Below, piece after piece: positions 5,807 through 28,287 of a stretch of DNA of 32,905 bases. How positions within the stretch are numbered: the first letter of the stretch is position 1; each line of letters begins with the position of its first letter. The DNA is taken from contig CANRHM010000003.1 of assembly GCA_947630415.1 (NCBI GenBank), forward strand, positions 1-32,905, in the 5' to 3' direction. Under the pieces are notes generated by a model. That model was not told where the DNA came from and did no database searches. It saw only the letters and a program-made list of their open reading frames with translations. This DNA comes from an uncultured Bacilli bacterium. GTDB lineage: Bacteria; Bacillota_I; Bacilli_A; RF39; UBA660. A program made the translations under genes and the position numbers.

Positions 5807-6764
5807 ATTCCTTTATAAGTTGTTTATAATTGTCTTTAAATTGGGCTTCTGCCTTTTTAACATCGATCTTATCTTCTAAGTTTAAGTAACTAATAACACT
5901 TCTAAAGTCACTGGCCAAATCGTGTCCCATAATTCCCATACGATCTGGTTGATCAAAGAAAAGATCATTTTTGTTTAAATGAAGAGCACGTCTTATAAAT
6001 CTTTCTGAGCAAGTACAACCATAATTATCGCCCCAATAGGATCTTTGCACATCCATTGTTTCTAGAACACGGAACAAAATACGGCGACAAAACTCAACGC
6101 GACAAGAAGTCTTGTAAAGAGCTTCTAGATTGAGAGCGGAAGATTGTCTTTTGATGCCCACGGCAATTTGAATGAGTTCATTTCCTTCTTCGGATAACTC
6201 AAACGCATTAATTCCTACTTTGTAACCAGACTTTTCAAGTGCTTTTACCACATTCGTTAAAATAATCGCACGATTAAGCACTTGACTTTTTGAAGTCATG
6301 TGATTATAAGAAAGACTCGTATGAATCTGTACAAACTTAGGTCGTTTCACTCTTCTTCGGTCTTCATAACACAAAGGATCACCTCTAATATAAGAAGGAA
6401 CAATTAAGAATCCTCCTTGAAGGGATTTTACCGTTTCATAGGTATGAAGATTATGAACATTATCTTTCGATAAGTTTTTTTGAAGTGTTAAAAACTCCTG
6501 ATACCCTGGATCAACTGGTCCAATTAAATCTTCAAGTGCTTTTTTATAAGGTTTCCCTGCAAAATCGTAATCATTGGTTTCACTAGCAAGCTTATGAAAC
6601 ACACTTTCATTTATGGAAGGATTACTTTTTAAGTAACGATACAAGGAATCGAGCGAACTAAAGCGTGCTAAATAAAGACGATAACGTTCCCCATTTACTT
6701 CCAACACTTGAGGTGGAAACATACACTCTGGATAGTTAATATAATTCTGTGGATATTCTGCCAT
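5805..6764 (-). CDS. Degenerate vWA-like partner of MoxR/CobS-type ATPase
   Basis: FVQIHTSLSYNH...RAIILTNVVKALEKSGYKVGINA resembles vWA beta1/alpha1/beta2 with a degenerate MIDAS; directly downstream of the AAA+ gene. Confidence 0.55.
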   Translation of the reverse strand: MAEYPQNYINYPECMFPPQVLEVNGERYRLYLARFSSLDSLYRYLKSNPSINESVFHKLASETNDYDFAGKPYKKALEDLIGPVDPGYQEFLTLQKNLSKDNVHNLHTYETVKSLQGGFLIVPSYIRGDPLCYEDRRRVKRPKFVQIHTSLSYNHMTSKSQVLNRAIILTNVVKALEKSGYKVGINAFELSEEGNELIQIAVGIKRQSSALNLEALYKTSCRVEFCRRILFRVLETMDVQRSYWGDNYGCTCSERFIRRALHLNKNDLFFDQPDRMGIMGHDLASDFRSVISYLNLEDKIDVKKAEAQFKDNYKQLIKE

Positions 6765-6778
6765 AAGAATGCACTTCC

Positions 6779-9040
6779 TTATTTTTCTTTTCCTTTTTCA
6801 CAGTAGTAAATAAATCTTTTTGCTAGTTGCTTTTCTGAAACACGGCTTAGTGGTGCAGAACTTTGTTCAAGCGTTATTTGACCGGAAATATCGTAATAAC
6901 TTCTAAACTGTCTTGATAAATAATCAAGGTAATCTGGTCCTTTTGTTTGAATGAATTTTTGGCGAAGCACTTCATCCGCGGTTTTACTATTGTGTTCAAT
7001 GTACCTAGCGATGGCTTCGGCATCTCTTGTAGAAGCAATTCCAGAAACGGAAGATTTACCCTGTCTTCTAGCCCACGAATCACAAGCCTTTCTAAAGTTA
7101 GCAAAAATATGATACCAGTTGGTATGTTCTCCAAAGAGACGTTCTTCCACGCCGTTATCGTATTTAAATTCAATAGGCGTCATACGTTCCAAAACACTTT
7201 CATCGAGCTTTCCACGAGATGAGAATTCTTCACTTTCTCCTTCTCCATTTGTATTACCTGCTGCCATCATTCTAAAGTTAGGACTCATCGGTACAATCAT
7301 ATCTTCACCAAATGTAACATAAACCTTTTTGTTAGGATTTTGAATAACTTCAAGTGAACTTGAATAGATGCCATTCAAAGAAACAATCGAATCCGCATCT
7401 CCATTATCAAGTTCATCGTAACCTAAGAGTTTTCCATACGTAGTTGCCACAAAGGTTGGGGTTGCTCTATATCTTCCTTGTGGATCATTATAACCAATAA
7501 TACTATAATTACCGGTAATCTTTCCATTATCGATATAATCAAGTCCTAAAAGAGAAGCAACTTGACGCATCAAATGTGTTTTTCCACATCCAGAAGGTCC
7601 CCATAAGTAAACCCAATCGCCTTCCATTACACAACGAATGACTTCATCCGTTAACTCATGGAACAATTCTCCTTTTTCAAATCTTTCCTTCTTCAAAGCC
7701 ATTATTTTATCAAAACGTTTATTAAAAGAAATGGATTCATCAAAAGCTGGAAGAATTCCTTTATTCGTACTTTCTACTGGAATGGTTACATTAGGTCCCA
7801 TCGGAACAATTAAACGACTATTTCCAGATACATAGGTTCCTTTTTCTTTAGATGTTACTTTCTCCGGAGCACTAGTTACGACTACAGTTTGTTTTTGTAA
7901 AGACTCAATTTGAGCCATCATTTCTTTGATTTGTTTTTCTTGGTTCACTGATCCCAATAATTTTTGTAGTTTTTCATCGTTACTAAGATAATCTTTTAAG
8001 GTATCTAAGCTACTGTTAGCAGCATCCTGTAGTCTTATAAGTTCCGAAGTCGTAGTCGATTGTAGGGTACTAGCAGCAAGACGAAGATCACGCATTTTAA
8101 CAGATGCTTCTTCTAATAATTTATTAAATACTTGATCGCTACTGGATTTGAAAGATTCTTGAAGAGATAACAAATATTGATCTAATTTCTCAAGCATTTC
8201 TTTTCGGGCTTCACCTACTTTTTGATTCATTGAGCGAACGGCACCATCGGCATAATTACTGATGGTTTTTTTACCCAACTCCACACAGCCATCAATGATC
8301 TTTTTACCTTCCGTTGTAAGGGCGTCAATTCGTTCTTGGAAGGTATCGATGTTTTGATCCATCGCTTCTAATTTTTCAATCAAACCTTGTGCTTTTTCAG
8401 CTTCAGCTGAAATATTGGCTAAGGTCTTTTCTCCAACCGGATAGATACCTACTCGTTTTTTTACTTCGGTCAACCTTTTATCGTGATAGACAGAAACCGA
8501 TCCTAATTCCGTTTCAAGTCCATTCATAAAAGCAATAAGTTCATTTTTTAGCACAGTTGGATTAATACAGTAAGGACTTACTTCACAAGCATAAGACACA
8601 ATCTCTTGGTATTGTGATTTTAATGTCTCATTACTTAAAATAAGCCTTACAATTTGAATATAATCAAGACGATTATTAAACAAGGCATAAAGTTTCTTAT
8701 CAAGAACACCTTCACTAATCTCTCTAAAATCGTAAGCAATAAAGTTATTGATAATCATTTCTTTAATTGCACTATATTCCTTGGTTTCCATTCCTTGTGG
8801 AAGTAAGAAATGAACGGTATCAAGAACGCGATCAAACGTATTTGAAAAATCAGCATCATCCTCATAATTTTCTTGTAATAGTCCCAATACGACACGTTCT
8901 AAAAATTCATACTCAAAAAAGTCGTTATTGCGTTCTTTATTTTTAATACCCTGTACATAAGTAACTAAAGCTCTTTGCACCCCATAAGAGACATCCGATC
9001 TATTAATTGCTCGAATTAAATTTTTATATTGTTCTTCCAT
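6779..9040 (-). CDS. MoxR/CobS/CbbQ-clade AAA+ ATPase with long N-terminal helical and coiled-coil extension
   Basis: Walker A GPSGCGKT, Walker B LLGYDELD, sensor-1 NFRMMAAGNT, arginine-finger region LDESVLER; start moved to ATG 9040 (AAGGGTGA RBS). Confidence 0.85.
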   Translation of the reverse strand: MEEQYKNLIRAINRSDVSYGVQRALVTYVQGIKNKERNNDFFEYEFLERVVLGLLQENYEDDADFSNTFDRVLDTVHFLLPQGMETKEYSAIKEMIINNFIAYDFREISEGVLDKKLYALFNNRLDYIQIVRLILSNETLKSQYQEIVSYACEVSPYCINPTVLKNELIAFMNGLETELGSVSVYHDKRLTEVKKRVGIYPVGEKTLANISAEAEKAQGLIEKLEAMDQNIDTFQERIDALTTEGKKIIDGCVELGKKTISNYADGAVRSMNQKVGEARKEMLEKLDQYLLSLQESFKSSSDQVFNKLLEEASVKMRDLRLAASTLQSTTTSELIRLQDAANSSLDTLKDYLSNDEKLQKLLGSVNQEKQIKEMMAQIESLQKQTVVVTSAPEKVTSKEKGTYVSGNSRLIVPMGPNVTIPVESTNKGILPAFDESISFNKRFDKIMALKKERFEKGELFHELTDEVIRCVMEGDWVYLWGPSGCGKTHLMRQVASLLGLDYIDNGKITGNYSIIGYNDPQGRYRATPTFVATTYGKLLGYDELDNGDADSIVSLNGIYSSSLEVIQNPNKKVYVTFGEDMIVPMSPNFRMMAAGNTNGEGESEEFSSRGKLDESVLERMTPIEFKYDNGVEERLFGEHTNWYHIFANFRKACDSWARRQGKSSVSGIASTRDAEAIARYIEHNSKTADEVLRQKFIQTKGPDYLDYLSRQFRSYYDISGQITLEQSSAPLSRVSEKQLAKRFIYYCEKGKEK

Positions 9041-9041
9041 G

Positions 9042-10358
9042 TTATTTATCACCCTTTACTAATTTTTTCATTTTGGCTTTATTTAAAAAATCGCTAGCAT
9101 CAATGACTTCTTTTGAATCGACGGATACTAAAGATGCTTGTTTCAATCCCTCAAAACCTTCCTTACTTTCTCCTAAATGATAAAAGTAACGATTTTTAAG
9201 TTTTCCTTCATAGTAACCATTTCGTTTTAAATCGCTATCTAAAAAGTGCGTCTCTAATAAATAGAGATGATCTTTCTCCGATAAAGAAACGCCAATTACA
9301 CTTTTATCGACTTCATCTAAAACAACTTCTAAAGAATTCATCCCGGTTGTTCGATTTCTTCTATAGATTCTAGCATAATGTTCCCGTTCTAAAAAATGTT
9401 CTTTACTAGATGCTAAATAAAGATTATGAATTGTAATCATCTTTTCATCTTGGGTTACTTCATCAATCGAAGTAGCAAGTCCAAAAGAAGCCTTCCAAGG
9501 AAGTAAAAACCAAGAGAAGTTTGGCGTTTGGTATACGAAGTCAGGTAATATAGGCTTATCTACTTTTTCCAAATCGTGATTTTCATAACGAATAATGACC
9601 TCGTCTTTCTTAACTTCATACGTCGATTTAATCATGTCTTTTGTAACAAAATAATGAGCGATTGAAGTCATATTCAAAAAAGGAAAACTGGTCTTAACTT
9701 CGATAGCATCGTATTTAAATTCCAAATCCAAGGTAACTGGTGATAACGCATTCGTATTCCCCAGTTCAAAGTGATAAAAAGAATCACTTAATTTCGTCGC
9801 TAATAAAGGAACAAAATGTTCTATTCCATCAACTTTAGCCGACAATAAATACTGTTCTTGATAGCCACGAAAGATAGAAGAAAATTGCACCACTTGATCG
9901 GTCACTTGATATAACTTTTCTACGTGATAAAAGACGATATCCATCAAAGGAGAAAACTCATCTTCCAAAAAAAGAAGGCTTCCGTCATATCCTTTTTTTC
10001 CTTCAAAAAAGTGATATATCTTATCTTTTTCTCCAAGCAAACCACTATCAAGTACCTGTTTAGTGTGTTCATCGATGTCAATTCCTTGATATAAATGGAA
10101 AGGATCGGTAAGACTATTTTCATAAACCTGATTCTTTTCATCGTGATAAACCTCGACTACTTTCTTTACATACTCATTAAAGTATTCATCTTTAGCCGTA
10201 TAAGAAAGTTGTTTCCCTCCATCATACGTAATGGAAAGAACAGGAACAACTAAGGCTTTATTGGACTTATCTTGAATAACATCCCATAACTTTATAGACT
10301 CTAAGTTACGAATGTTATAAATAGCAATCAATTCTTCGTCCATACTTTTTAACTGCAT
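9042..10358 (-). CDS. Hypothetical ~438-aa protein, first gene of the AAA+ operon
   Basis: Long ORF; likely start ATG 10358 after a G-rich RBS; stop 1 nt before the AAA+ start; no family recognised. Confidence 0.8.
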   Translation of the reverse strand: MQLKSMDEELIAIYNIRNLESIKLWDVIQDKSNKALVVPVLSITYDGGKQLSYTAKDEYFNEYVKKVVEVYHDEKNQVYENSLTDPFHLYQGIDIDEHTKQVLDSGLLGEKDKIYHFFEGKKGYDGSLLFLEDEFSPLMDIVFYHVEKLYQVTDQVVQFSSIFRGYQEQYLLSAKVDGIEHFVPLLATKLSDSFYHFELGNTNALSPVTLDLEFKYDAIEVKTSFPFLNMTSIAHYFVTKDMIKSTYEVKKDEVIIRYENHDLEKVDKPILPDFVYQTPNFSWFLLPWKASFGLATSIDEVTQDEKMITIHNLYLASSKEHFLEREHYARIYRRNRTTGMNSLEVVLDEVDKSVIGVSLSEKDHLYLLETHFLDSDLKRNGYYEGKLKNRYFYHLGESKEGFEGLKQASLVSVDSKEVIDASDFLNKAKMKKLVKGDK

Positions 10359-10478
10359 CTTACCTTCCCCCCACATCTAGTTTTCTATCCTATCATAAAA
10401 GCACCTTTATTTCAAGAAAAATCAGTATCCAAAAGCATATTTTAAAAACCTAACTAATAGGATAAAACAGGTGATTGT

Positions 10479-11816
10479 ATGAATAAAGAATCTAAATTAT
10501 TTCTTCTACTCTTTATAGGACTTTTATCTTCTGTTTTAATAGGCTCCGTTATTTTAAGAAATAGGAGTCCTAAATTAAATACTCAAAAGGAACTTACCGC
10601 GACCGTCATGGCTTTTTCGGAAAACACTGTAACCGTCAAAGATGAAAATGATGTAGTTTATACGTTTGGCATATTAAAACAAGATAACATCGAAGTGGGA
10701 AGTACCATCAAGCTCTCCTATGAAGGAAACTTTATCGATGGTGTAATTGCTTCTTCTTACGAAGTAATTCCTGTTGAAAGTACTCCTAATACAGGTCTAT
10801 TCAAAGACTATTATAAGTTGGCCCAGGAAAAACTAGATACCCTATCACTAGACCAAAAAATAGGTCAATTATTCCTTGCTAGGTACGAAGATGTAACTAG
10901 TGAAACTCTAAAAACCTATCCTGTAAGTGGCTTTATCTTCTACCAAAAAGATTTTACCGATAAGACCAAGGAAGATGTATTAAAAAGAAGTAATGACCTA
11001 CAAAAACTAAGTACCATTCCCCTTCTATTAGGAGTCGATGAAGAAGGTGGGGATGTCGTTCGTATCAGTAGTAATCCGCTTCTAAGAAAAACACCTTTCA
11101 AGTCTCCTCAAGAACTTTATGAAGAAGGAGGATTTCCTCTCATTCAACAAGATACCATCGAAAAGAATAAACTCTTAAAAGAACTAGGTCTTAATCTAAA
11201 CCTAGCCCCTGTCGTAGATGTATCCACTGACCCCGGTGATTATATTTATAAAAGAACCATTGGACTAGGTACCAAGGACACCGAAACCTATGCCGAAACC
11301 GTGATTAAAGCAAGTAAAATGTCGTCTATTTCCTACACCTTAAAACATTTTCCAGGATATGGAAATAATCAAGATACCCATGAAGGGTCTTCTACCGATG
11401 AACGAGATTATGAAGAAATCATAGCACGAGATATTCCTCCATTTAAAGCAGGTATTAATGCAGGTGCTGAAGCCGTATTAGTAAGTCATAACATTGTAAA
11501 AAGTATTGATGGAGATAATCCTGCATCTCTATCCAAAAAAGTACATGACCTTTTACAAGACGAACTTGATTTTACAGGAGTTACCATCACAGATGATCTA
11601 GCTATGAGTGCTCTAGATGAAATAGAGGATAAAGAAATTAAAGCCATTCTTGCAGGAAACGACTTATTAATTACTTCCAACTATAAACAAAGTTTTACCA
11701 ACATCAAAGAAGCAATTAACAACAAAGAAATAACTACCTCTCAACTAGATTCCCATGTCTTAAAAGTATTAGCTTGGAAATACTACAAAGGACTCCTCTT
11801 AATCAATCAAAAATAA
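10479..11816 (+). CDS. Membrane-anchored GH3 beta-N-acetylhexosaminidase (NagZ-like)
   Basis: N-terminal TM helix; GH3 motifs VDEEGG, NLAPVVD, KHFPGYG..DTH, ITDDL. Confidence 0.85.
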   Translation: MNKESKLFLLLFIGLLSSVLIGSVILRNRSPKLNTQKELTATVMAFSENTVTVKDENDVVYTFGILKQDNIEVGSTIKLSYEGNFIDGVIASSYEVIPVESTPNTGLFKDYYKLAQEKLDTLSLDQKIGQLFLARYEDVTSETLKTYPVSGFIFYQKDFTDKTKEDVLKRSNDLQKLSTIPLLLGVDEEGGDVVRISSNPLLRKTPFKSPQELYEEGGFPLIQQDTIEKNKLLKELGLNLNLAPVVDVSTDPGDYIYKRTIGLGTKDTETYAETVIKASKMSSISYTLKHFPGYGNNQDTHEGSSTDERDYEEIIARDIPPFKAGINAGAEAVLVSHNIVKSIDGDNPASLSKKVHDLLQDELDFTGVTITDDLAMSALDEIEDKEIKAILAGNDLLITSNYKQSFTNIKEAINNKEITTSQLDSHVLKVLAWKYYKGLLLINQK

Positions 11817-11853
11817 TTGCTATTTTAATCAACATTCGTTATACTTCTAATAG

Positions 11854-12309
11854 GTGATGCAAATGAAAAAAATAATCACATTCCTACTTATAATCTTACT
11901 CTTAACAGGTTGTCAAAATAAAGATCAAGTTCGCTGGGAAAAAGAGATAAAAAATCTACAAGAAACCGCTATCCAAGATAGTTCTAAAAAAATTTATCAA
12001 GAAGACATAACCGAAGCGATTACTTATTTAAAACAACATATTCTTAATCCCATAAACAATAGAGAGGTAGCCAAAAAGATCATTTATTATAGTACTTATT
12101 TAACAGAACTAGGTAATAAAAAAGAAGAAAACAAAGATCACATCATAACAAAAGTAAGTAGTCAAATACAAGACTATATCACATCTCTTTACAAAGAAAA
12201 AACAACCAACAAGAATGCCTTAATTCTATCAAAGGGAAATGTACTAGTTAGTGAATTACTCCAAATAAAAGAGGAAGACATCTCTTCCTTCATAACAGAA
12301 AACGGATAA
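11854..12309 (+). CDS. Putative lipoprotein
   Basis: MKKIITFLLIILLLTGC lipobox; true start may be ATG 11863. Confidence 0.75.
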   Translation: MMQMKKIITFLLIILLLTGCQNKDQVRWEKEIKNLQETAIQDSSKKIYQEDITEAITYLKQHILNPINNREVAKKIIYYSTYLTELGNKKEENKDHIITKVSSQIQDYITSLYKEKTTNKNALILSKGNVLVSELLQIKEEDISSFITENG

Positions 12310-12329
12310 TACAAAACATTATCCGTTTT
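12299..12329. terminator. 12-bp perfect hairpin between convergent genes (bidirectional terminator; possibly also a DGR target hairpin)
   Basis: AAAACGGATAAT(12299-12310)-7 nt loop-ATTATCCGTTTT(12318-12329). Confidence 0.65.
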
Positions 12330-12348
12330 ATTATGTTTAATGAGAAGT

Positions 12349-14118
12349 CTATATTTCTGCATTGACTAGTACAAGGCGGAACGAGTAGGTGGCGTACGCA
12401 GAGCCAAAGGTGTAGTAGTAGTAGAACACTCCAGCACTCGAGCTATGGAGATAGTAGCCGCCGCGGATGAACCACGGGGTCGTAGAGCTTACAAAACTAT
12501 AGGTATTACTATACCATCCTTTGGTTTCTGATAAAGCATGTCCATAACATTCACCATTCTGTGTACATGAGGTAGCAAAGTTAGTTGTATATAAATCATA
12601 ATACTTGGCATCTGGTATTAGATTAGTTTCTCCACTTGTCTTAAATCCGGAACTTTTTATTGTTGGTTTACCTGTAGCATCATCTTTTAGTGCACCCATT
12701 ACATATTCAAGTGCCCCACCACTCATATCATATACTCCTGTGATGTTTCCAGTCGTAGATGCTTTTTGTCCTGCTTCAGTATTATATGTATTTGCACAAC
12801 CAGAATCTTCACTTGCATTTGCTGTTGCTCCTGCTATTCCTGTTGTATAACTTGAACAGTTATTGATATATACTTCTTCCCCGTCATTTCCATATTTTCC
12901 ATACTCACTTTGTGATAGGTAGGCTACTGCTCCCCACTCACTATTCTTACTCATATGGGTATCGATACTTCCATCACTACTAAATCCATATTCAGTAGTA
13001 TTCTTGGCCATATTTTGTGATATTGTGAATGCTGTTGAAACTCGGATTCCTCTCCATGAGGTTACACTTGGCTTTATTTGTGGCGTTAATGTGGTTAAAT
13101 CACATCTGGTATTAACATCACCACTAGTTGATGGTGTACAGTTCTGTTCTTTATTACTAGTTTCAAATTTTCCATACCAGAATCCTTCTAATTGTTCTCC
13201 TCCAAAATCAAAGGCTGGATGTACTATATAATTGTCTTCATCTGCTAAAGTTAGATCTTTACTTATAAATTTTATTTTTATTTCTCCTGGATTTAAATAT
13301 TTTGGAGAAGAGGAACTTCCACTATTTGTTCCTCCTGCTGTTTTTATATCTACATAATCATATTCGTATCTCGGTATCCATACCCACATCGTATTGATAT
13401 CTTCTATATCTATTTTTTCTCCTACTTCTGCTTCTACATAATCACTTCTTTGTTGTGTTCCTGTTTCTTTTACTGTTACTGCATTTGCCCATTCTTGATT
13501 ACAATAATTATACCAACTCTTATCATTATTTGTACTATCTGCTTTGACCCATGAACTTTTGCCTTGATCCCATTTTACTGGAATCATTCCCTCTACTAAT
13601 TTTGGCACATTTGGTTGAGGCATATCTTCACATGATAATGCTTCATAAGTTCCTGTTATTTTTGTTTCACCTTCATTTAAAGCTAATTCTTTATTACTTA
13701 ATCCACATCTTCCATTTAAAGTTACGGTTTCAGAACTTGTTCCATTATTCTTTAATTTTAAAGTATAAGTTAACGTTGTTCCTGTGGCTAAATTTTGTAA
13801 TTCTATTTCACTTTCATTGCTACTTGCCGATAATACTTCGATGTTATTACTTCCACTATAGGTGATTATAGAATGAATATCTACTAAACTTTGATTCGTA
13901 AAAGTGACAGTTATCTCTTTTTCTTCTCCTCCTTGTAAAGTTACTTGATTGTTTTCTAAGTCGTTACTTTGAATGGGGCAAGAGACATCGCCTACGATAA
14001 TATTAAGTGCTCCTTTCTTTTCTGTACTTGTGGTAAATAATGCATAACTAAAACCGATGATCCCTGTAATCATTAATAACATTACAAAACTAAGCATCAT
14101 CTTAGTTCTATCTTTCAT
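12349..14118 (-). CDS. Secreted/surface protein with SipW/TasA-type signal peptide and C-terminal CLec (FGE-sulfatase-like) domain; putative DGR target
   Basis: N-terminus ...GIIGFSYA|LFT...NIIVGDV; CLec-fold motifs GVYDMSGGALEYV, PWFIRGG and terminal SFRLVL. Confidence 0.8.
   Translation of the reverse strand: MKDRTKMMLSFVMLLMITGIIGFSYALFTTSTEKKGALNIIVGDVSCPIQSNDLENNQVTLQGGEEKEITVTFTNQSLVDIHSIITYSGSNNIEVLSASSNESEIELQNLATGTTLTYTLKLKNNGTSSETVTLNGRCGLSNKELALNEGETKITGTYEALSCEDMPQPNVPKLVEGMIPVKWDQGKSSWVKADSTNNDKSWYNYCNQEWANAVTVKETGTQQRSDYVEAEVGEKIDIEDINTMWVWIPRYEYDYVDIKTAGGTNSGSSSSPKYLNPGEIKIKFISKDLTLADEDNYIVHPAFDFGGEQLEGFWYGKFETSNKEQNCTPSTSGDVNTRCDLTTLTPQIKPSVTSWRGIRVSTAFTISQNMAKNTTEYGFSSDGSIDTHMSKNSEWGAVAYLSQSEYGKYGNDGEEVYINNCSSYTTGIAGATANASEDSGCANTYNTEAGQKASTTGNITGVYDMSGGALEYVMGALKDDATGKPTIKSSGFKTSGETNLIPDAKYYDLYTTNFATSCTQNGECYGHALSETKGWYSNTYSFVSSTTPWFIRGGYYLHSSSAGVFYYYYTFGSAYATYSFRLVLVNAEI
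12367..12495 (-). other. Putative DGR variable region (VR)
   Basis: 67/120 G+C over 12371-12490 (hand count) in an AT-rich gene; non-scaffold codons nearly all NNC/NNT; ends TCGTTCCGCCTTGTA (SFRLV). Confidence 0.75.
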
Positions 14119-14146
14119 TCAAATCACATCCTTATTATCTATTTCT

Positions 14147-14174
14147 ATTATAAAACTACCCCCCCCCATGTCAA
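14147..14174 (-). promoter_or_regulatory. Consensus sigma-A promoter with G9 homopolymer in the spacer (putative phase-variable promoter)
   Basis: Minus strand TTGACA(14174-14169)-T-GGGGGGGGG-TAGTTT-TATAAT(14152-14147); 16-nt spacer. Confidence 0.85.
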
Positions 14175-14196
14175 CTTTTTGTTAATTTCTTCTCAT

Positions 14197-14218
14197 AAAA
14201 AAAGAGGAGTATTCCTCT
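14197..14218 (-). terminator. Intrinsic terminator after the ftsEX-M23 operon
   Basis: Minus strand AGAGGA-ATAC-TCCTCT then a T-run, at the M23 gene stop. Confidence 0.65.
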
Positions 14219-15416
14219 AACGTGTGTACCAAGTCGTATAGGTTTTACTTGGAAAATTAATTACACTCTCGGCTCCTTTAAATCCACTGTTGTAACTTCG
14301 ATTTACAAAACTTACATAATTATCCCACTTACCACAATTGCTATCACTGAAGAGTCTACATGGCCATACCTCTAGATGTAAGTGAACTCCAAAGGCATAC
14401 CCCGTATCGCCCATGTAGCCTACAATCGTATTGGAATTAACTTGCATTCCAACATAGATATTGGAAGCATATCTACTAAGATGGGCATATAACGCTGAAT
14501 AATACGTTCCATTTATGGTACGATACTGAATGACTAAACATAAAGCTCCATTATTATCGTGGTAAATGTTCGTAATCGTTCCATTACCAATCGAATACAA
14601 AGCCGTATTTTTTCCTGTAGAACTACCAATATCGATTCCTCTATGGAGACTTCCCCAACGGTAGCCTATAAAACTAGTAACATATCCCGTTTTTATTGGT
14701 CTTAAGAAAACGGCATTACTACTAGTTACTGCACAATCTCTTCCAATTACTTGGTTACGAGAAGTACATCCTTGTTTCTTATAGTAATCGACTAATAACT
14801 TCTTATCACGCACTTGTTCTTCAAGGCTTGGTGATAATCCTTCAATTTCAGCAATCGAAACATTTAACTTTTTAATTTCTTCGTTTAAGCTAGCGACTTT
14901 CTTTTCATATTCTTCTTGCTTATTTTTAAGTTCCGTTTTCCGGTCTTCATTCTTTTTAATTAAATCATTTAATTCATTAATAACATTATCGTTATAGGCT
15001 GTAATTTGTTCTACTACCGAATAACGATAGATAAAATCCGTAATGGTATCTCCTCCAAAGACATATTCCATGTAGAGATTTTCTCCTTGACTCATTTGCA
15101 AATAAGCAAGAAGAGATTTGGTTTCTTCTTGTTTTTCTTCGATTTCTTTATTGGATTCAACAATTTCTTCTTGCAACTCCACCGACTCTTCACTCATCTT
15201 TTGCATACTATTTTTTAATGATTGAATCGTCGAGTTGTTGGTATCGACCTGATTTTCTTTATCATCGATCAAGGCTTGATTTTTTCGTAATTCTTCTTGC
15301 GCTTCTGCTAACTCATCGAGGTAGTCTCCATAAGTCACTTCTTCTGCTAAAACAGACATTGGAAATGAAGCAAAGAGAATAGCAATAACAAAAAGGGAAA
15401 TAACTTTCTTTTTCAT
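14217..15416 (-). CDS. Secreted coiled-coil M23 peptidoglycan peptidase (PcsB/CwlO/EnvC-like architecture, FtsEX partner)
   Basis: Signal peptide, long coiled coil, M23 zinc motifs HRGID and HLH, YAHL; TAATG overlap with ftsX. Confidence 0.9.
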   Translation of the reverse strand: MKKKVISLFVIAILFASFPMSVLAEEVTYGDYLDELAEAQEELRKNQALIDDKENQVDTNNSTIQSLKNSMQKMSEESVELQEEIVESNKEIEEKQEETKSLLAYLQMSQGENLYMEYVFGGDTITDFIYRYSVVEQITAYNDNVINELNDLIKKNEDRKTELKNKQEEYEKKVASLNEEIKKLNVSIAEIEGLSPSLEEQVRDKKLLVDYYKKQGCTSRNQVIGRDCAVTSSNAVFLRPIKTGYVTSFIGYRWGSLHRGIDIGSSTGKNTALYSIGNGTITNIYHDNNGALCLVIQYRTINGTYYSALYAHLSRYASNIYVGMQVNSNTIVGYMGDTGYAFGVHLHLEVWPCRLFSDSNCGKWDNYVSFVNRSYNSGFKGAESVINFPSKTYTTWYTR

Positions 15417-16315
15417 TATACTTTTAGATACCTCCTTACCGCATGGTAACTTCCAATGGTACCCACAATGATACCTAATAGAATAATTACCCCAGCCACA
15501 TAGAAGATAAAGGGTTCAGGTTTAATAAGTTGAATAAGTGGTGAAAATAAATTACCTTTAAAATAATTGTAAAAAGCAACATATCCATAGGTTAAGCCTA
15601 AAACTGGAACAATACTTCCTAATAGTCCTAAAATCATTCCTTCAATAACAAATGGTAACTTGATGGAAAAATTACTTGCTCCAACTAGTCGCATAATGGA
15701 AATCTCTCTTTTTCTTGAGAAAATCGTAAGTTTAATCGTATTAATGATTAAGAATACCGTTACAATGACTAAGGCAATCACGATTCCATAGGCAATCTTT
15801 TCAATGACACTAAAGGTGCCTACCAATTGTTCTACTGTTCCTTCACCATAACTAACTACCGCTACTTTATCAATTTTTTTAATTTCTTCCACAGTGGAAT
15901 TGATATTTTCTAACTTGGTTACTTTAACTAAATAACTATCACGTAAAGGATTATCTTTACTATCCCATTCACCCATCGTCTGCTTAAAAATCTCATCCGA
16001 ATCCATCATTTCTTGTTTAGATTCTTCTTTCGATTTAAACGTAATTTCTTCGATATTATCTAATCGTTCAATTGCACTTTTTACTTTGGCTACATCACTT
16101 TCGGTAGCATCATTTTCAATAAAGACCACCATCGTTACATCTTGTTTAATAACTTCCGTAAAATGATCCACATTCAAAGAGGCAATTAAAGAAACGGCTA
16201 CAATGATTAACGTAATCGTAATACACGAAATCGAAGCCATGGATAAAGAGAAATTTCGAAATACACTTTTAAAAGCATCGCGAATACTTCTAAATAACAT
16301 TCTAAAAAACTTCAT
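15416..16315 (-). CDS. ftsX: Cell division permease FtsX
   Basis: TM1 + extracellular domain + 3 TMs; INTIKLTIFSRKREISIMRLVGA motif; follows ftsE. Confidence 0.95.
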   Translation of the reverse strand: MKFFRMLFRSIRDAFKSVFRNFSLSMASISCITITLIIVAVSLIASLNVDHFTEVIKQDVTMVVFIENDATESDVAKVKSAIERLDNIEEITFKSKEESKQEMMDSDEIFKQTMGEWDSKDNPLRDSYLVKVTKLENINSTVEEIKKIDKVAVVSYGEGTVEQLVGTFSVIEKIAYGIVIALVIVTVFLIINTIKLTIFSRKREISIMRLVGASNFSIKLPFVIEGMILGLLGSIVPVLGLTYGYVAFYNYFKGNLFSPLIQLIKPEPFIFYVAGVIILLGIIVGTIGSYHAVRRYLKV

Positions 16316-16339
16316 TTACATCGGTCCTTTCTCTTAAAG

Positions 16340-17047
16340 TTAAAAGGAGTTGGCTGCCTCTTTTGCATACGTTCCTTTTTCGTAATCGGAAATTAATCTT
16401 CCTTCTTTTAAAACCACTACACGTTTCTTCATTTTGTTTACGATTTCTTTATCGTGTGTAGCCATAATAATCGTTGTTCCTAAAGTCTTATTGATATCTT
16501 CTAAGACTTTCATAATTTCCATACTCATCGTAGGGTCTAAGTTTCCTGTAGGTTCGTCGCAAAGAAGAAGTCTAGGATTATTGACAATCGCTCTTGCAAT
16601 GGCAACACGTTGTTGTTCTCCTCCTGATAATTGATCAGGATAGTTTCGAATCTTTCCTTTTAATCCTACTAACTCTAAGGCTTGTAACGTTTTCACTTTA
16701 ATAACGTCTCCCTTAGTACCAATCACTTCTAATGCAAAAGCCACATTTTCATAAACGGTACTTTTGGGAAGCAAACGATAATCTTGGAAAACGATTCCTA
16801 ATTTTCTTCTCAATTTATACACTTTGCGATTTCTTAGTTTAGCAACATTGAGTCCACCTAAAATAATTTCTCCCCGAGTGGGTTTTTCTTCTCGATAAAG
16901 CATCTTGATTAGTGTACTTTTACCACTTCCAGATCCACCAATAACAAAGACAAAATCACCTTTTTTAATTTTAAGATTCATATCGTATATAGCCGTAACT
17001 CCATTTTTATATTGTTTAGTCACGTCTTTAAGTCGAATTAATTCCAT
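16340..17047 (-). CDS. ftsE: Cell division ATP-binding protein FtsE
   Basis: Walker A GGSGSGKS, VFQDYRLL, LSGGEQQRVAIARA, DEPTGNLD; start moved to ATG 17047 (GAGGTG RBS). Confidence 0.95.
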   Translation of the reverse strand: MELIRLKDVTKQYKNGVTAIYDMNLKIKKGDFVFVIGGSGSGKSTLIKMLYREEKPTRGEIILGGLNVAKLRNRKVYKLRRKLGIVFQDYRLLPKSTVYENVAFALEVIGTKGDVIKVKTLQALELVGLKGKIRNYPDQLSGGEQQRVAIARAIVNNPRLLLCDEPTGNLDPTMSMEIMKVLEDINKTLGTTIIMATHDKEIVNKMKKRVVVLKEGRLISDYEKGTYAKEAANSF

Positions 17048-17122
17048 AGAGCACCTCAATTCAATTTATGGGTTATAAATAATTATATCATAGAAAATCG
17101 TCTTTTGTCGTTTTCTATCCCA

Positions 17123-18034
17123 TTATTCTTGGGTAATTTCTTCCAAGTTTAAGAGTTCTCTTTTGACCGAAGACTCATATGCATCAATTACTACAAAGAA
17201 ACTATCGGGGTCAATCTGCTTTACACCATTTGTCAGTTTAAAATAATCACGAGTGGGAATAACCGTCATTAAAACATGTTTCTTTTTCTCTAAGAAACCA
17301 CCCTTAACATTGAAAACCGTAACACCGGCATCTAACTCTTTTAAAATGAAAACCTTGACCTTTTCTTCTTCTGACGTAATGATATAGAAAGTTTTAGACT
17401 TGGAGATTCCTAAAAGAACTTTATCCATAACAATACTACTAACATAGAGAACAATGACTGAATAAAGGCCAATGGTAATACCAAAACAATAACTTCCTAT
17501 GATAATAACAATTAAGTTAATAATCATATTGACTTTACTGATACTAATTTTAAATTTTTCATAAATGATTTGACTTACAATCGTAAGACCTCCACTATTG
17601 AAGCCAACCTTGTAACAAATCCCATTGGTAAGTCCACTAAAAATACCAATGAATAACGATAATAGAATAAGATCTTTATTACCCACCATAATATATTCGC
17701 CAATATCTTTTGTCCATTCAACAAAAAGCGGAAAAACGAAAGTAGCAATAACCGCTCCTCCCGTTTTTTCAGGTCCCAACATGAAAAGACTAACGATTAG
17801 TAAAACAAAGCAAAGTACAAAAATCGTTGTTGCAGGAGATACATGAAATAGATGTTCAACAATCATGGCAACACTTCCATTTCCACCTGAAATAAGATGA
17901 GTTGGAAGTTGTAAAAGATTAAACATAACGGCATTGACAAAAAGCGCACCACAGAGAATAAGTGAACGGATAATCAAATGCCTCGATTTCATTTTAGGAG
18001 CCGTTTTCTCTTCTTCCTTTTTAAAAAACTTCAT
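17123..18034 (-). CDS. YitT-family membrane protein
   Basis: Multiple TMs, GFNSGGL motif, C-terminal GVTVFNVKGG...DPDSFF domain; start moved to ATG 18034 (GGAGGT RBS). Confidence 0.85.
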   Translation of the reverse strand: MKFFKKEEEKTAPKMKSRHLIIRSLILCGALFVNAVMFNLLQLPTHLISGGNGSVAMIVEHLFHVSPATTIFVLCFVLLIVSLFMLGPEKTGGAVIATFVFPLFVEWTKDIGEYIMVGNKDLILLSLFIGIFSGLTNGICYKVGFNSGGLTIVSQIIYEKFKISISKVNMIINLIVIIIGSYCFGITIGLYSVIVLYVSSIVMDKVLLGISKSKTFYIITSEEEKVKVFILKELDAGVTVFNVKGGFLEKKKHVLMTVIPTRDYFKLTNGVKQIDPDSFFVVIDAYESSVKRELLNLEEITQE

Positions 18035-18035
18035 C

Positions 18036-18923
18036 TTAAGCACCTCCAGAAACCTCATAAGCATCACTTGCTACAAAGAAAGCCGATGGATCGATCTGGA
18101 AAATACCTTCTTTTAATTTAAAGTATTCGTTTGTGGGAACCACACACATCAACACTTTTTGTTTTTCTTTGGTATATCCTCCTCTTGCATCAAAAATAGT
18201 TACTCCATGATTTAAATAAGTTAAAATATATTCTTTGATTTCCACATCTTTTTCGGTAATAATGTAGAATGCTTTAGAACTTGAAATACCTAGAATCACT
18301 TTATCCGTTAAAATACTGATAATATACAAAACGATGATACCATACATAAGTCTTGTAACACCAAAGAAGAAAACACTACTGAAGACGATTAAGCCATCGC
18401 TTAACAACATCGCATTTCCTAAACTCATGTGCGCATATTTTGAAACAATTTGGTTGATGATATCCGTTCCACCAGTCGTAAATCCCGCTTTAAATATGAG
18501 TCCTGCACCAAGACCATAAAGCACTCCTCCAAAAAGAGCAAGCAATAACACCTGAGAAGTATCTACTGTAACATAATTACCAATCGTAGAAGTTAGTTGA
18601 ACAGCAAGTGGAAAGAGTAAAGAACCTAGAATCGATCCTTTGGTCTTTTCCCATCCTAAAGTAAAGTAACTAACTACTAATAAAATAATCGAACCCACTA
18701 AAATAAAGAAGGAAGGTTCAATATTCCATAAACTTTTAAAGATGATAGAAAGTCCACTTAAACCTCCAAAAACAATATTATTAGGAAGTAAAAACAAGTT
18801 GAAAGCAATGGAAGCAATAACAATACCAACGACTAACTCAATATAACGACGAATGATTTTAGTACCGTTAACTTTCTTTATAATTTCATCGGTTTTAGGT
18901 TTCTTTCTTCCAAATAATCTCAT
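18036..18923 (-). CDS. YitT-family membrane protein
   Basis: GGLSGL, GFTTGGTDI, HGVTIFDARGGYT, DPSAFF motifs; ATGA overlap with prfB. Confidence 0.9.
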   Translation of the reverse strand: MRLFGRKKPKTDEIIKKVNGTKIIRRYIELVVGIVIASIAFNLFLLPNNIVFGGLSGLSIIFKSLWNIEPSFFILVGSIILLVVSYFTLGWEKTKGSILGSLLFPLAVQLTSTIGNYVTVDTSQVLLLALFGGVLYGLGAGLIFKAGFTTGGTDIINQIVSKYAHMSLGNAMLLSDGLIVFSSVFFFGVTRLMYGIIVLYIISILTDKVILGISSSKAFYIITEKDVEIKEYILTYLNHGVTIFDARGGYTKEKQKVLMCVVPTNEYFKLKEGIFQIDPSAFFVASDAYEVSGGA

Positions 18924-20018
18924 ACATTTACCTCCTTCAAATAACTTTCAATAAATAGATCAAGGTCGCCATCTAAGACTTTGGAAACATTGCTGGTCTC
19001 AACCTTGGTTCTTGCATCTTTAACAAGGGAATACGGGTGAAGTACATAACTTCGGATTTGTGAACCAAAGTTGATAGAAGCGACTTCTCCTTTTAATTCT
19101 TTCTTTTCTTGTTGTTGTTTTTCCATTTCTAAAAGTTTAAGTTTGCCTTTTAAGATGGTAAGAGCTCTTTCTCTATTTTGTAACTGACTTCGCTCATTTT
19201 GACAAGTAACTACAATTTTCGTGGGAAGATGGGTAATACGTACGGCCGAATCTGTCGTGTTAACGTGTTGTCCTCCAGCACCTCCCGAACGATAAACATC
19301 TATTTTTAAATCTTTGGGATCAATTTCAATATCGATACTATTATCAATTTCAGGCGTTACTTCAATAGAAGCAAAGGAGGTATGTCGTTTATTATTAGCA
19401 TCAAATGGAGACAAACGTACTAAACGATGAACTCCTCGTTCACACTTTAAATAACCGTAAGCATAACTTCCTTTAATTAGAAGAGATGCCGATTTAATAC
19501 CTACTTCTTCCCCTTCTTGATAATCTAGTACCTCAATCTTGTATCCTTTCTTTTCAGCATATCTTGTGTACATTCTGTATAACATCATAGCCCAATCACA
19601 AGCTTCTGTTCCCCCTGCTCCAGAATGTACTTCTAAAATACAATTATTTTGGTCATACGGACCACTTAGTAAAAGAAATAACGATAACTCTTCGAGTTTT
19701 TTTTCCAAAGATGGAAGTGTTTCTTCGATAGAAGAAAGAATCTCACTATCCTCTTCTTCCATTAAATTAAACAAATCTAAATTATCTCCAATTTCCTTTT
19801 TTAATACGGTTATTTTTTCCGTAATATTTCTTAAACTAGACAATCTATCAATAACTTCTTTGGCCTCTTCTTGATGATCCCAAAAAGAAGCTTCATTCAT
19901 CTTTGCTTCTAAGTTTTTTTCTTCTTCTAATTTAGAATCAATGTCAAAGTGACCTCCATAAATCGCCAATTTCTTTTTGTAATTTCTCAAGTTGTCTCTT
20001 CATTTCATTTTTATCCAT
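18920..20018 (-). CDS. prfB: Peptide chain release factor 2 (programmed +1 frameshift, ~365 aa)
   Basis: SPF and GGQ motifs; ATG 20018 gives MDKNEMKRQLEKLQKEIGDLWRSL then CTT TGA C, continuing +1 as DIDSKLEE. Confidence 0.97.
19943..19957 (-). promoter_or_regulatory. RF2 autoregulatory +1 frameshift site
   Basis: Minus strand GGAGG-TCA-CTT TGA C: internal SD 3 nt before the shifty codon. Confidence 0.95.
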
Positions 20019-20094
20019 TTTTATCCCATTCCTTTTATTTATAACTAATTTTATTATATCATAGCCCCATCTAAAACCACAAATAACTTCGAAG

Positions 20095-20118
20095 AAAAAA
20101 GAGAAATCTCTTTCTCTT
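20095..20118 (-). terminator. Intrinsic terminator
   Basis: Minus strand AAGAGAAA-GAGA-TTTCTCTT followed by Ts, at the stop of the 431-aa gene. Confidence 0.65.
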
Positions 20119-21412
20119 AAGCTTCTTTAGGTTCTCTATAAGTTTGTTTAATATTGTATTTAACATCTGGTAAAGCCGCTACCTCTTCGATGGTATGAAC
20201 ATCGTATCCCCTACTTTGTAATAAGGAAATAAGTTCTTCTTCTGATAAATATTCTTCACTTAAACGATCCCACTCAATTTCGCCATTAAGATTGGTAAGC
20301 GGAACAATCTCTACTTTAATACGTGTTTCAATTTCTCTTGTTCCATCTTTAAATGGTTTAGTATCAGGGACTACACGAGTATACTCACTCCAAGCACTCC
20401 AAACCTCACTATCATCAATGCGTTTGGCATTAGGAGATGGTTTAGAAGGAAGAAGATCACTTCTCTCCATCTTTTCAACACGATAGTATTTGCTAGCATA
20501 CGTCTTGGTTTCTTCATCACGTTTTGCACCTTGAACAGGAGCCGTTAAATAATACGTAATTTCTTCATCGCGATTCGTAGTACCTGATGGATAATAATAT
20601 TTAGGTCCATCATCGTTTTGAATATACCATTTATAAGCAAAATTTTGAGATACTTCTTTAAATGGATAAAGTTCATTTGGACTTTCTTTATAGTATTCTG
20701 TAACTAATTCCGTATTGGATTTATCTTGTGGATAATAGAAACGAACATCTCCTTGGTAAGCCCAATTCTTATCACGGTAACGATAATAGGTCGTTTGTTT
20801 TACGATTTTATAATTGGTATAAGGTACTTCATCTAACCACATGGTTTCTTTTTCACCCACGGTGGTTTTATCGGTATTTAACTTTTCAGCTTGATAAGAG
20901 AAATTTACCTTGGCATTCATTTTCCCTAAAATATCTTGTTCATTGACTAAAGGCTTTTCTTCTCCATAGGCAACCGTTGAAGTATTGTTTTCACATTGCA
21001 TACTAACTTCAAAATGATAATTACCACTTTCAAGTTTACATACTTTAACCATACTTACATCTTTATCACACTTTTTATAATAGTTGATATCGGATATTAA
21101 TTTTTGTTCTTGTATAGTTTGTAAGGCTACCGTTGTACAACTTCCATTAGAAGATGGTAACTTCGTTGGATCAAACTCAAAATATGTTTTTGCACTCGCT
21201 AAAAAATAATCTTGTGCAAGCGTTGATCCTGGTTGCTCAAAAGGATCAATTTTACTCACTTCATACGCATGCATTCCAAATACAGCTATCAAACCAATTG
21301 CAATAACGGAAATGATAACAAGTGCTATACGATAACGTTTAATCGTCTTTTTACTTGAATATTGATTTGGATTTTCATAATCGGTAATATTTTTATATTC
21401 GTTATTATCCAT
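20117..21412 (-). CDS. Membrane-anchored extracellular protein, pilin-like N-terminal module and Tyr/Trp-rich C-terminal region
   Basis: Single TM (IALVIISVIAIGLIAVFG), four Cys in the first extracellular domain, YYRYRD/WSAWSEY/YYP motifs; AGGAGG RBS. Confidence 0.7.
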   Translation of the reverse strand: MDNNEYKNITDYENPNQYSSKKTIKRYRIALVIISVIAIGLIAVFGMHAYEVSKIDPFEQPGSTLAQDYFLASAKTYFEFDPTKLPSSNGSCTTVALQTIQEQKLISDINYYKKCDKDVSMVKVCKLESGNYHFEVSMQCENNTSTVAYGEEKPLVNEQDILGKMNAKVNFSYQAEKLNTDKTTVGEKETMWLDEVPYTNYKIVKQTTYYRYRDKNWAYQGDVRFYYPQDKSNTELVTEYYKESPNELYPFKEVSQNFAYKWYIQNDDGPKYYYPSGTTNRDEEITYYLTAPVQGAKRDEETKTYASKYYRVEKMERSDLLPSKPSPNAKRIDDSEVWSAWSEYTRVVPDTKPFKDGTREIETRIKVEIVPLTNLNGEIEWDRLSEEYLSEEELISLLQSRGYDVHTIEEVAALPDVKYNIKQTYREPKEA

Positions 21413-21488
21413 AAATTCCTCCTACTTTCCTACTTTAACTATATCATGCCAAAAGAGGCTATTTCAAGCAAAAGAAAAAGAAAATCGC

Positions 21489-21617
21489 TTATTTACGTCG
21501 ATTTTTTTCTAAATAAAGATTCTCTTTGGTAAAAGAATAACATTCTAAAGTAAAATCTAATAGAGGATTAGCATTTAAATTATTTTCAATATAGATGATA
21601 TTATTAATAAAATGCAC
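21489..21617 (-). CDS. Possible 42-aa small ORF or gene remnant
   Basis: AAAGAAGGA RBS then GTG; MHFINNIIYIENNLNANPLLDFTLECYSFTKENLYLEKNRRK*; below the ORF-track cutoff. Confidence 0.3.
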   Translation of the reverse strand: MHFINNIIYIENNLNANPLLDFTLECYSFTKENLYLEKNRRK

Positions 21618-21637
21618 ACTTTTTCAGTTCCTTCTTT

Positions 21638-22234
21638 CTATTTTATAAGCATCTTAGTTATCTTGCTTTCTAAATCACTTCTTCTTTCTTGATTCGAATC
21701 TATCACAAAATAAGAAGACATTATACGAGGAATAATTTTAAAAGTTTCCCCTTCTATTTCCATTTCATAATAGGGAACTTGCTTACTTTTTAAAACAAAT
21801 TCATCTAACACATTATAAAAAGAAGTTCCTTCTTCAAACTTTAAAAAAAGAGGTCTATAACTAGGATTAGACGAATCTAAAAAATAAGGATTTCCTTGAT
21901 GAAAGAAAAGAATTACATAAGTACATCTATCAACTAGATCATCAAAAGATATAAAACCAAAATCAATAAGAACATTCCCGTTAGTATCATAGGTATTATC
22001 GCCTATGACATTACAAATGAATTTCTTTTTTTCTTTTTCCTGAAACCAATCTTTTAATCCATAAAAGATAGCACTTTCATCGTAATACTTTTTATCAATT
22101 CCTACTTCAAAAGGAATTAAGTATGCTAGAAAAGGATCTATTGGAACCACAAATTTTGAAGAAGGCGCAATCGACTGCATGCTCTTAGGTTTCAAATAGG
22201 ATCGTAATTGGTCGATTCCTTTAATGCTTTCCAT
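21638..22234 (-). CDS. Hypothetical protein
   Basis: 198-aa ORF with AAGGAG RBS, 14 nt downstream of the previous stop. Confidence 0.7.
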   Translation of the reverse strand: MESIKGIDQLRSYLKPKSMQSIAPSSKFVVPIDPFLAYLIPFEVGIDKKYYDESAIFYGLKDWFQEKEKKKFICNVIGDNTYDTNGNVLIDFGFISFDDLVDRCTYVILFFHQGNPYFLDSSNPSYRPLFLKFEEGTSFYNVLDEFVLKSKQVPYYEMEIEGETFKIIPRIMSSYFVIDSNQERRSDLESKITKMLIK

Positions 22235-27187: not shown

Positions 27188-27262
27188 ATATACATCTCCT
27201 TAAATTGAACAAAATAATTTATTAAAATAATCATACAAAATAAATGTTTTTTCCTTTACATA

Positions 27263-28287
27263 CTATTTGTTTTCTATTTGCTTTGTTTCACTTAATAATC
27301 TATCAAAATCGGATACATAGTTTCTATCTTGTATAACTTTATATTTTTCATATTCAATTTCTGCTTTTTCTACTGCTTGTTTATGAGAAACTGTTCCTTT
27401 TCCTTCTAATACATCATAATGAAAAACTTTTATTGCATTTTCAACTTCTTTTTTCCAATCATCCATATACATTGCAATATTTCTTTCGGCATTATTTTCG
27501 GCTATATCTAAAAATAAATTTACTAAATTATTCAAATTTTTAATTTCTTTTTCATCTAAATAATTTTTGGCAATAGTAATATCTGATTAAGTATCTTCCC
27601 ATCAGGTGATTTATCCCAATTGGTAAGACCCATATTTTCTTTTGTAGAATCAACTCTATTATAAACTATTTCCGCAGCTGTATATCCAGTTATAGCGTAA
27701 TGAAATTTATTTTGAATCGTTTTATAAAATTCCATTGCTATTTCACTATTTTTATCATAATCTATTGAACATTCTGCAAAAATATCTGTAACTTTTTGAT
27801 AAAACATTCTTTCACTTGTACGAATTAATTTAATTCTTTCAAGTAATTTTTGAAAATATTCTTGATCTTTTTTATTGGCTTTCATGAACCTTTCGTCATT
27901 TAAAGCAAATCACTGAACCATATAATCCTTAATAATTTTATTTGCCCAAGTTCTAAATTTAATTGCTTTTTTAGAATTAACTCTAAATCCTATGGAAATA
28001 ATCATATCAAGATTATAATACGGATAAACTCTTTTAACTTTACGAGTTCCTTCATTTTGAACTTGTGCAATTTTTGCACAAGTTGAATTTTCATTTAATT
28101 CTTCATCTTTATAAATATTATTAATATGTCTAATAATACCGCTTCTATCGATGCTAAATAAATTTGCTAAAGCTTCCGTATTTAACCAAACATCTTCATT
28201 TTGAAGTAATACCTCTACTTTAGTATTTCCTTCCTCATCAATATAAAATAAAATATTTCTTTCATTTCCAATTAATTTATCTTTCAC
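27263..28287 (-). pseudogene. RhuM-family pseudogene (nonsense codon plus 1-nt frameshift)
   Basis: Three track ORFs form one RhuM: in-frame TGA at 27912-27910 where the paralog has Gly (KGF), and CTT AA TCA GAT at ~27590 where one extra A restores KILKSDITIAKNYL. Confidence 0.85.

Follow-up and report, generated by a model that had tools for sequence, protein, structure and literature searches.

The gene for a predicted secreted DGR-type variable protein in an uncultured gut Bacilli lineage lies behind a sigma-A-type promoter that has a run of nine guanines in its spacer. We consider it likely that this run is a slipped-strand contingency tract, bringing about phase variation or level variation in the expression of the gene. 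The principal support is comparative, and comes from the G runs found at genes of the same family in related MAGs.

A G9 tract in the spacer of a consensus promoter

The sequence that we have analyzed, referred to throughout as the window, is a 32.9-kb stretch from a single assembly with a GC content of 31.1%. Reading of both strands and a consensus scan place the promoter on the minus strand. In the direction of transcription, the -35 hexamer TTGACA (14174-14169) is followed by a single T (14168), the run of nine guanines that is the proposed site of slippage (14167-14159, C9 on the plus strand), the sequence TAGTTT that forms the 3' part of the spacer (14158-14153) and the -10 hexamer TATAAT (14152-14147). 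The hexamers are thus separated by a 16-nt spacer, and the arrangement TTGACA-T-G9-TAGTTT-TATAAT set out in the original prediction is found exactly at 14174..14147. The -10 box had been placed about 30 nt upstream of the ATG; the measured gap between the -10 hexamer and the start codon (14118-14116, minus strand) is 28 nt. A ribosome-binding site AAGGA (14133-14129, minus strand) lies 10 nt before the ATG, and the start at 14118 is confirmed by the conserved N-termini of homologs.

The promoter stands out clearly from its surroundings. A scan of positions 9000-22000 gave a 12/12 match to consensus at this promoter only, the runner-up sites scoring 10/12, and in that interval promoter-like sites show no general enrichment (51 found, compared with 53.8 +/- 8.7 in shuffled sequence). 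The exact pattern TTGACA-N15-19-TATAAT occurs once in the window, against a mean of 0.08 in shuffles, with at least one occurrence in 8 of 100 shuffles. The run is indeed the longest G/C homopolymer of this AT-rich window, as had been noticed before: the C9 of the plus strand is the sole G/C run of seven or more, and the next longest is a C6 at 10367-10372. A word of eight guanines is expected 0.09 times in the window, and the observed count was reached in none of 100 shuffles. We therefore confirm that the promoter with its G9 tract is a real feature, far from chance expectation.

Directly upstream of the -35 hexamer there is an A-rich stretch (14175..14190, minus strand) that the window shares, in an alignment of 19 promoter modules made by eye, with paralog promoters from a related MAG (accession prefix CANQIE). 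A 16-nt word covering the A-rich stretch and the first four bases of the -35 hexamer has a single exact occurrence in the window. This stretch may play the role of an UP-like element. An Rfam search of positions 11500-15000, with E up to 1, gave no match to a structured RNA, and blastn of the promoter region against a plasmid collection gave no match.

The gene encodes a predicted C-type-lectin variable protein

The gene downstream of the promoter (12349..14118, minus strand) encodes a protein of 589 aa with an N-terminal hydrophobic helix, an Ig-like beta-sandwich at about residues 27-160 and a C-terminal domain. Sequence comparison gives little indication of its nature. Pfam returned weak Ig-like matches over residues 32-130, a search of NCBIfam with the 589-aa protein gave 0 families and a sequence-profile search of the PDB gave no match (best E 0.77). 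An AlphaFold2 model, built on 80 family sequences, has a mean pLDDT of 84.1 and a pTM of 0.74, and predicts that the C-terminal ~400 aa adopt the C-type-lectin fold of a DGR variable protein like TaqVP. The best fold matches in the PDB are three chains of TaqVP, a DGR variable protein from Thermus aquaticus (5vf4), with E 9.4e-8 to 3.7e-7 and probability 1.00, at a TM of 0.45-0.46 on the target and 16% identity. Mtd variants of Bordetella phage match the model more weakly (1yu3, E 2.8e-3; 1yu0, E 1.7e-2).

The family to which the protein belongs is very large, with at least 7884 proteins at E <= 0.001 among 8000 candidates scored; tblastn of the 589-aa protein against a phage collection gave no match. 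In an alignment of 15 members the N-terminal third is divergent and the core is strongly conserved, while over the C-terminal ~45 residues a fixed scaffold alternates with positions that differ in almost every sequence. Taking the model together with this pattern, the G9-bearing promoter is predicted to drive the gene of a secreted DGR-type variable protein.

Relationship to diversity-generating cassettes

The original prediction called the gene a DGR target. Near its 3' end there is a VR-like segment (~12371..12496, minus strand) with a GC content of ~46%, compared with 31% for the window, that can be aligned to the VR/TR scaffold of two related loci, L077 and L075. Where the TRs of both loci have A, the window segment has a base other than A at 22 of 38 columns, while it differs at 12 of the 69 columns where both TRs share a base other than A. 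The gene thus bears the mark of adenine-directed diversification.

The two related loci carry their cassettes in cis. The DGR cassette of L077 (3644-8411), which is chromosomal and complete, comprises the VR of the family gene, the TR, bAvd and RT, and sits between tilS-ftsH and mscL. The last 142 nt of the family gene (6272-6413) are repeated 258 nt downstream with 83% identity, and beyond this TR lie an ORF resembling bAvd (E 1.4e-12) and one for a reverse transcriptase of the RVT_1 type (E 5.2e-18). The promoter of the target gene has a G10 run between TTGACA and TATGAT, with a 19-nt spacer, so that here a tract-bearing family gene co-occurs with what is, judged from its sequence, an active-looking DGR cassette. 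L075 (1861-4350) has a VR, a TR 262 nt downstream and, further downstream, an RT motif pair; the 5' end of this locus is cut by the start of the contig. In both loci the mismatches between the VR and its own TR are concentrated on TR adenines, at 19 of 40 adenines but 3 of 86 other bases in L077, and at 19 of 38 adenines but 1 of 88 other bases in L075. The share of mismatches falling on TR adenines is therefore 19/22 and 19/20, respectively. A further locus from the MAG of L077 (L064) may be a second target of the L077 DGR; it is 76% identical to the L077 TR, with mismatches also on bases other than A and a different 3' end.

Within the window itself neither a TR nor an RT was detected. A repeat search and low-stringency blastn with the 3' end of the gene found no repeat, blastn with the two real TRs of L077 and L075 found VR-like gene ends and no TR in the window, and neither Pfam applied to the 33 ORFs nor a six-frame search for the motif pair found an RT. 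If the gene has a TR and an RT of its own, these lie outside the 32.9-kb window. The description as a DGR target holds for the fold, the VR-like 3' end and the existence of homologs with cis cassettes, but not for the cassette components of the window, and with these absent the label derives from homology. On that basis the window gene is probably a DGR target.

G runs precede most complete copies of the family gene in related MAGs

Relatives were collected in one scan of a species-representative genome collection (one genome per species) using the family alignment. The 79 loci analyzed derive from the best 80 of 600 confirmed stretches, and amount to 537,728 nt with a GC content of 31.2%. All come from MAGs titled uncultured Bacilli, Tenericutes or Clostridia, many of them of rabbit-gut series, and more than 20 are from the single MAG CANQIE. 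The neighbors of the window gene (M23 peptidase, FtsX, lipoprotein and GH3) are listed in none of the 79 loci; weak FtsE-like ABC matches are present in two.

These loci contain 35 G/C runs of eight or more, comprising two of G8, 17 of G9, 15 of G10 and one of G11. All 35 are runs of G on the sense strand of the family gene, and C runs never exceed six. The spectrum of G runs across the 79 loci is bimodal: 440, 64, 5 and 0 runs are found at lengths 4 to 7, followed by 2, 17, 15 and 1 at lengths 8 to 11. A first-order Markov model of the same loci leads to an expectation of ~1.0 G run and 0.14 C runs of eight or more.

The original prediction had suggested a search for the same tract upstream of paralogous CLec genes, and the result is positive. 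Using tblastn we located 82 copies of the family gene in the 79 loci (84 HSP clusters, two genes being split in two each), of which 29 are cut at the 5' end by the end of the contig or locus and 53 are complete. A run of G8-G11 lies immediately 5' of the gene in 32 of the 53 complete copies in these related MAGs, bearing in mind that copies within one genome share ancestry and hence are not independent. The other three tracts precede the starts of paralogs that run off the end of the locus, and one of these repeats the module of locus L025. Thus one family carries essentially all the tracts in 537 kb. The tract is absent from 21 of the 53 complete copies, two of which have less than 100 nt of upstream sequence, and the tract-free copies include every complete copy in eight MAGs. 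The excess of G8-G11 runs is strong, strand specific and family specific.

The tracts occur in seven sequence contexts

Seven different sequence contexts can be distinguished among the 79 loci, five in promoter spacers and two in 5' coding sequence. In the five promoter contexts the run lies between -35-like and -10-like hexamers, at positions that differ from one context to another.

The context of the window, which we call module A, is shared with 18 of the 19 complete CANQIE copies. It has the form TTGAC[A/C/G]-T-Gn-TAGTTT-TATAAT within a conserved block of ~60 nt, beyond which the flanking sequences are unrelated. Conservation is much higher in the block than in the coding sequence (best protein identity 59%). 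Comparing the window with the 18 copies of this one MAG, indels are confined to the G run. A 16-nt spacer is present in the window and in 16 of the 18 CANQIE copies, the remaining two (L009 and L010) having 17 nt (G10); the combination of G9 with a 16-nt spacer occurs in the window and in 14 of the 18 tract-bearing CANQIE copies. In two copies the length of the run has changed by substitution with retention of 16 nt, giving A+G8 in L011 and, with loss of the following T, G10 in L022.

The four other promoter contexts come from four other MAGs, and in these the run immediately follows the -35 or immediately precedes the -10. Their best hexamer pairs give spacers of 18-21 nt, with an ambiguous assignment of the hexamers, and so the idea that the promoters stand one step from the optimum is not valid everywhere. 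One locus (L069, ~3040-3060) has an interrupted run, GGGGTGGGG, in a module that is shared with L025 and L063, where the G9 tracts (two and one, respectively) are uninterrupted. The interrupted run may be a locked variant of the switch.

In the coding-type contexts, found in the MAGs CANQIV and CANAXT, the run is preceded by an ATG and followed by a prepilin-type N-terminus (Pfam N_methyl, E 2.5e-6). Each of these seven tracts (six G10 and one G8) is out of frame by exactly one step, and in the five copies that can be assessed the ORF downstream of the tract is open for 584-1199 codons. A search of the protein database with one coding-type copy listed at least 120 hits, of which 26 N-termini were inspected. 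Six of the 26 have precisely the in-frame sequence that a G9 run is predicted to encode (...NMSRGGVLYT... and close variants, leading into the prepilin motif), one is without the run and 17 start at internal methionines. Given the seven out-of-frame copies and the in-frame forms in the database, both frame states exist in nature among close relatives, the two forms being different paralogs or strains rather than proven alleles of one locus.

A number of other observations were made on these relatives. The public gene calls for P0121 and P0123-P0138, which are close to the coding-type copies, start at internal methionines and the prepilin N-terminus is missing, probably due to out-of-frame poly-G in those assemblies. 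The family is therefore systematically mis-annotated. In another MAG two paralog promoters (L051, ~1370-1400 and 3380-3415) have no G run; instead they have a T run, T7 in one and T9 in the other, between TTGACA and a TATCAT-like -10, perhaps a poly-T counterpart of the G-run arrangement. Two tract-bearing copies (L003, 182-2154, and L007, 3287-5295) have a frame that is broken in mid-gene, their ORFs ending about 900-1000 nt before the homology does. These breaks could reflect pseudogenes, assembly errors or a further switch.

Putative flanking terminators and neighboring genes

The family gene is flanked upstream by an M23/PcsB-like peptidase gene and downstream by genes for a GH3 hydrolase and a lipoprotein. 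By Pfam these are chromosomal housekeeping genes, as are the other neighbors, prfB, two YitT-family genes, ftsE and ftsX.

It had been proposed that a terminator at 14197-14218 insulates the gene from the upstream operon. A terminator-like hairpin is indeed present at that position on the minus strand (14218-14197), with a 6-bp stem and a 4-nt loop (14218-14203) followed by T's to 14197, and it overlaps the stop codon (14219-14217) of the peptidase gene. The hairpin is weak, at -7.2 kcal/mol with z -0.48, and 49 of 200 shuffles fold equally well. With a stability no better than that of shuffled sequence, insulation is doubtful. Read-through from the ftsE-ftsX-peptidase genes could provide transcription that is independent of the tract. 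At the other end, a hairpin with a 12-bp stem (12299-12329) lies between the stop of the family gene and the convergent lipoprotein gene (11854-12309), and the family gene therefore looks monocistronic. This hairpin is probably a two-way terminator that closes the unit.

Further features of the window were noted in passing. The prfB gene has a classical programmed +1 frameshift site (19944-20017, minus strand); a short ORF runs from an ATG at ~20017 to CTT TGA C (~19950-19944), preceded by a GGAGG-like stretch, and the post-shift frame is the 356-aa ORF listed from a TTG start. The site shows in addition that the organism reads TGA as stop. An intact RhuM-family gene (26177-27187, minus strand) adjoins a second copy that is split into three ORFs (27910-28287, 27556-27885 and 27263-27535) corresponding to successive parts of the Pfam model; in the region 26177-28287 DNA stretches of the two copies are 71-79% identical with a spacing of 1094 nt. 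Between 2126 and 10376 on the minus strand five genes with little or no annotation have a layout like that of a defence island. They encode proteins of 609 aa and 505 aa, a DUF7192 protein, a 757-aa AAA_5 ATPase and a 444-aa protein whose gene overlaps that of the ATPase by 11 nt. A defence role was considered for these genes and set aside, PADLOC giving a weak mad8 match alone (E 8e-5), to the AAA_5 ATPase. The run at 10367-10372 (G6 on the minus strand) falls within the first codons of the 444-aa ORF, or within its RBS region should translation in fact begin at the second ATG.

Discussion

The phase-switch reading of the G9 tract has strong comparative support, and we regard it as partly supported. 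On this mechanism slippage of the polymerase during replication would add or remove a G, shifting the distance between the -35 and -10 hexamers to 15, 16 or 17 nt for G8, G9 or G10. The strength of the promoter would follow the length of the spacer, in a heritable and reversible manner. We infer both the slippage at this locus and the effect of spacer length on its transcription. By analogy with other organisms G10 would be high, G9 intermediate and G8 low; in the porA gene of Neisseria the ranking usually quoted is G11 high, G10 medium and G9 low. The length of the run differs between otherwise conserved copies, in a comparison that is between paralogs and species and not within a population, and the length of a homopolymer in an assembly may be off by one. 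The window copy belongs to a large family of paralogs in uncultured gut Bacilli. Most of these would carry a poly-G switch of their own, located in the promoter spacer for some and in the 5' coding region for others, and at least some of the proteins would also be diversified at the C-terminus by a DGR. With a switch for each member, a population could express different subsets of these proteins. Among the assembled copies, most promoters depart from the 17-nt optimum and every coding-type tract is out of frame, and this fits with most members being low or off in most cells.

The recurrence of 16 nt in module A is equally expected if there is a constraint on that spacing. With 16 of 18 copies and the window at 16 nt, the spacing could be constrained rather than drifting, and this bears on an explanation in which the G run is a fixed cis-element, for example the site of a regulator or a spacer that sets the properties of the promoter, selected for its length and involving no switching. 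The repeated G9 with a 16-nt spacer, the two substitution variants that keep 16 nt and a promoter module that is far more conserved than the coding sequence would all be accounted for in this way. Yet the run takes differing positions in the five promoter contexts and is inside the coding sequence in two others, and a single binding-site role is therefore unfit as an explanation. The homopolymer itself is the sole feature common to all contexts, all lengths from 8 to 11 occur, and the coding-type copies exist in both frame states with ORFs that are otherwise intact. We judge it unlikely that the run is a fixed element of this kind.

The same module could alternatively have been duplicated along with its genes, the tract being a passenger with no effect on expression, which would be set by read-through or other signals. 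In favor of this are the origin of the module copies within one genome as paralogous duplicates, the weakness of the upstream hairpin and the 21 of 53 complete copies that do without a tract. But uninterrupted runs of G8-G11 should decay at 31% GC, and 35 have been kept where about one is expected, with no runs of length seven and none on the antisense strand in the 79 loci. Moreover, the unrelated flanks of the seven contexts argue for repeated retention or recruitment, and we find the passenger explanation improbable. Given that homopolymers are prone to error and that the window derives from one assembly, the run or its exact length might be an artefact of sequencing or assembly; the presence of the G run in independent assemblies from at least seven other MAGs makes this very improbable. 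The existence of the run is secure, and it is the exact count alone (9 versus 10) that is open to error.

Returning to the contingency tract, a broader scheme of two-tier surface variation is possible, which we put forward tentatively. Each genome of these uncultured gut Bacilli would encode DGR-type C-lectin paralogs by the dozen, with TasA-like or prepilin-like N-termini for export and an individual poly-G switch for every paralog. The poly-G would have been recruited repeatedly, in the promoter spacer or the 5' coding region, and one or a few DGR cassettes would rewrite the ligand-binding tips. Slippage would then pick the paralogs that are displayed, and retrohoming would pick what they bind.

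Switches that depend on a homopolymer in the promoter spacer are textbook examples in a few pathogens, and to our knowledge they have hardly been described for uncultured commensal Firmicutes. The switch itself is of a known type; the novel part is the family-wide pairing with DGR-type proteins. If the tract switches, then two mechanisms of hypervariation act on one expanded family, one on the choice of paralog and the other on binding by the tip, and this would bear on how gut commensals vary their surface in the face of phages, immunity and changing ligands. In practical terms, sense-strand G8-G11 runs in AT-rich MAGs are a marker for such genes, with the warning that gene callers truncate the out-of-frame copies. 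Our literature search found no paper linking a DGR target with homopolymer phase variation, and the terms 'phase varia' and 'homopolymer' occur 0 times in the main text of two DGR surveys (bioRxiv 10.1101/2024.11.15.621889; PMC8144416).

Comparison with known systems

The predicted protein resembles TaqVP (5vf4) and Mtd (1yu0/1yu3) in having a variable-protein fold with a hypervariable C-terminal scaffold. It differs from those systems in that the window has no TR or RT, the identity to TaqVP is 16% and there is no sequence-level match in the PDB.

For the promoter, homopolymers between the -10 and -35 are reported to vary the expression of porA, fetA and opc in Neisseria (PMC2791445). As in those genes of Neisseria meningitidis, where the run is poly-G or poly-C, the homopolymer analyzed here separates the -35 from the -10 in a sigma-70-type promoter that serves a surface protein gene, and the locus shares with the porA/opc type its anatomy, the over-representation of the tract and the differences in length between copies. 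In Neisseria the length of the run sets the spacing and through it expression, as is predicted for the tract here. The differences are that the host is not a proteobacterial pathogen but an uncultured gut Bacilli lineage of low GC content, that about 20 paralogs per genome carry one and the same module, and that the product is a DGR-type variable protein.

In the vlp system of Mycoplasma hyorhinis each gene of a surface lipoprotein family has poly-A in its promoter spacer, giving combinatorial ON/OFF expression. In both systems the surface proteins are encoded by a multigene family, the lineage is Firmicute-derived and low in GC, and every gene has a spacer homopolymer of its own. They differ in that the tract here is poly-G and not poly-A, the products are DGR-type proteins of CLec fold rather than repeat lipoproteins, and some of the relatives use a tract in the coding region.

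Campylobacter and Helicobacter have poly-G contingency genes, with runs of ~8-11 in or before genes for surface structures. There, as here, G/C runs of ~8-11 stand out from an AT-rich background, and tracts are both intergenic and intragenic. The phylum and the gene family are different, and in the present case one family carries essentially all of the tracts. For an AT-rich background, the Campylobacter-type poly-G contingency genes are the closest analogue.
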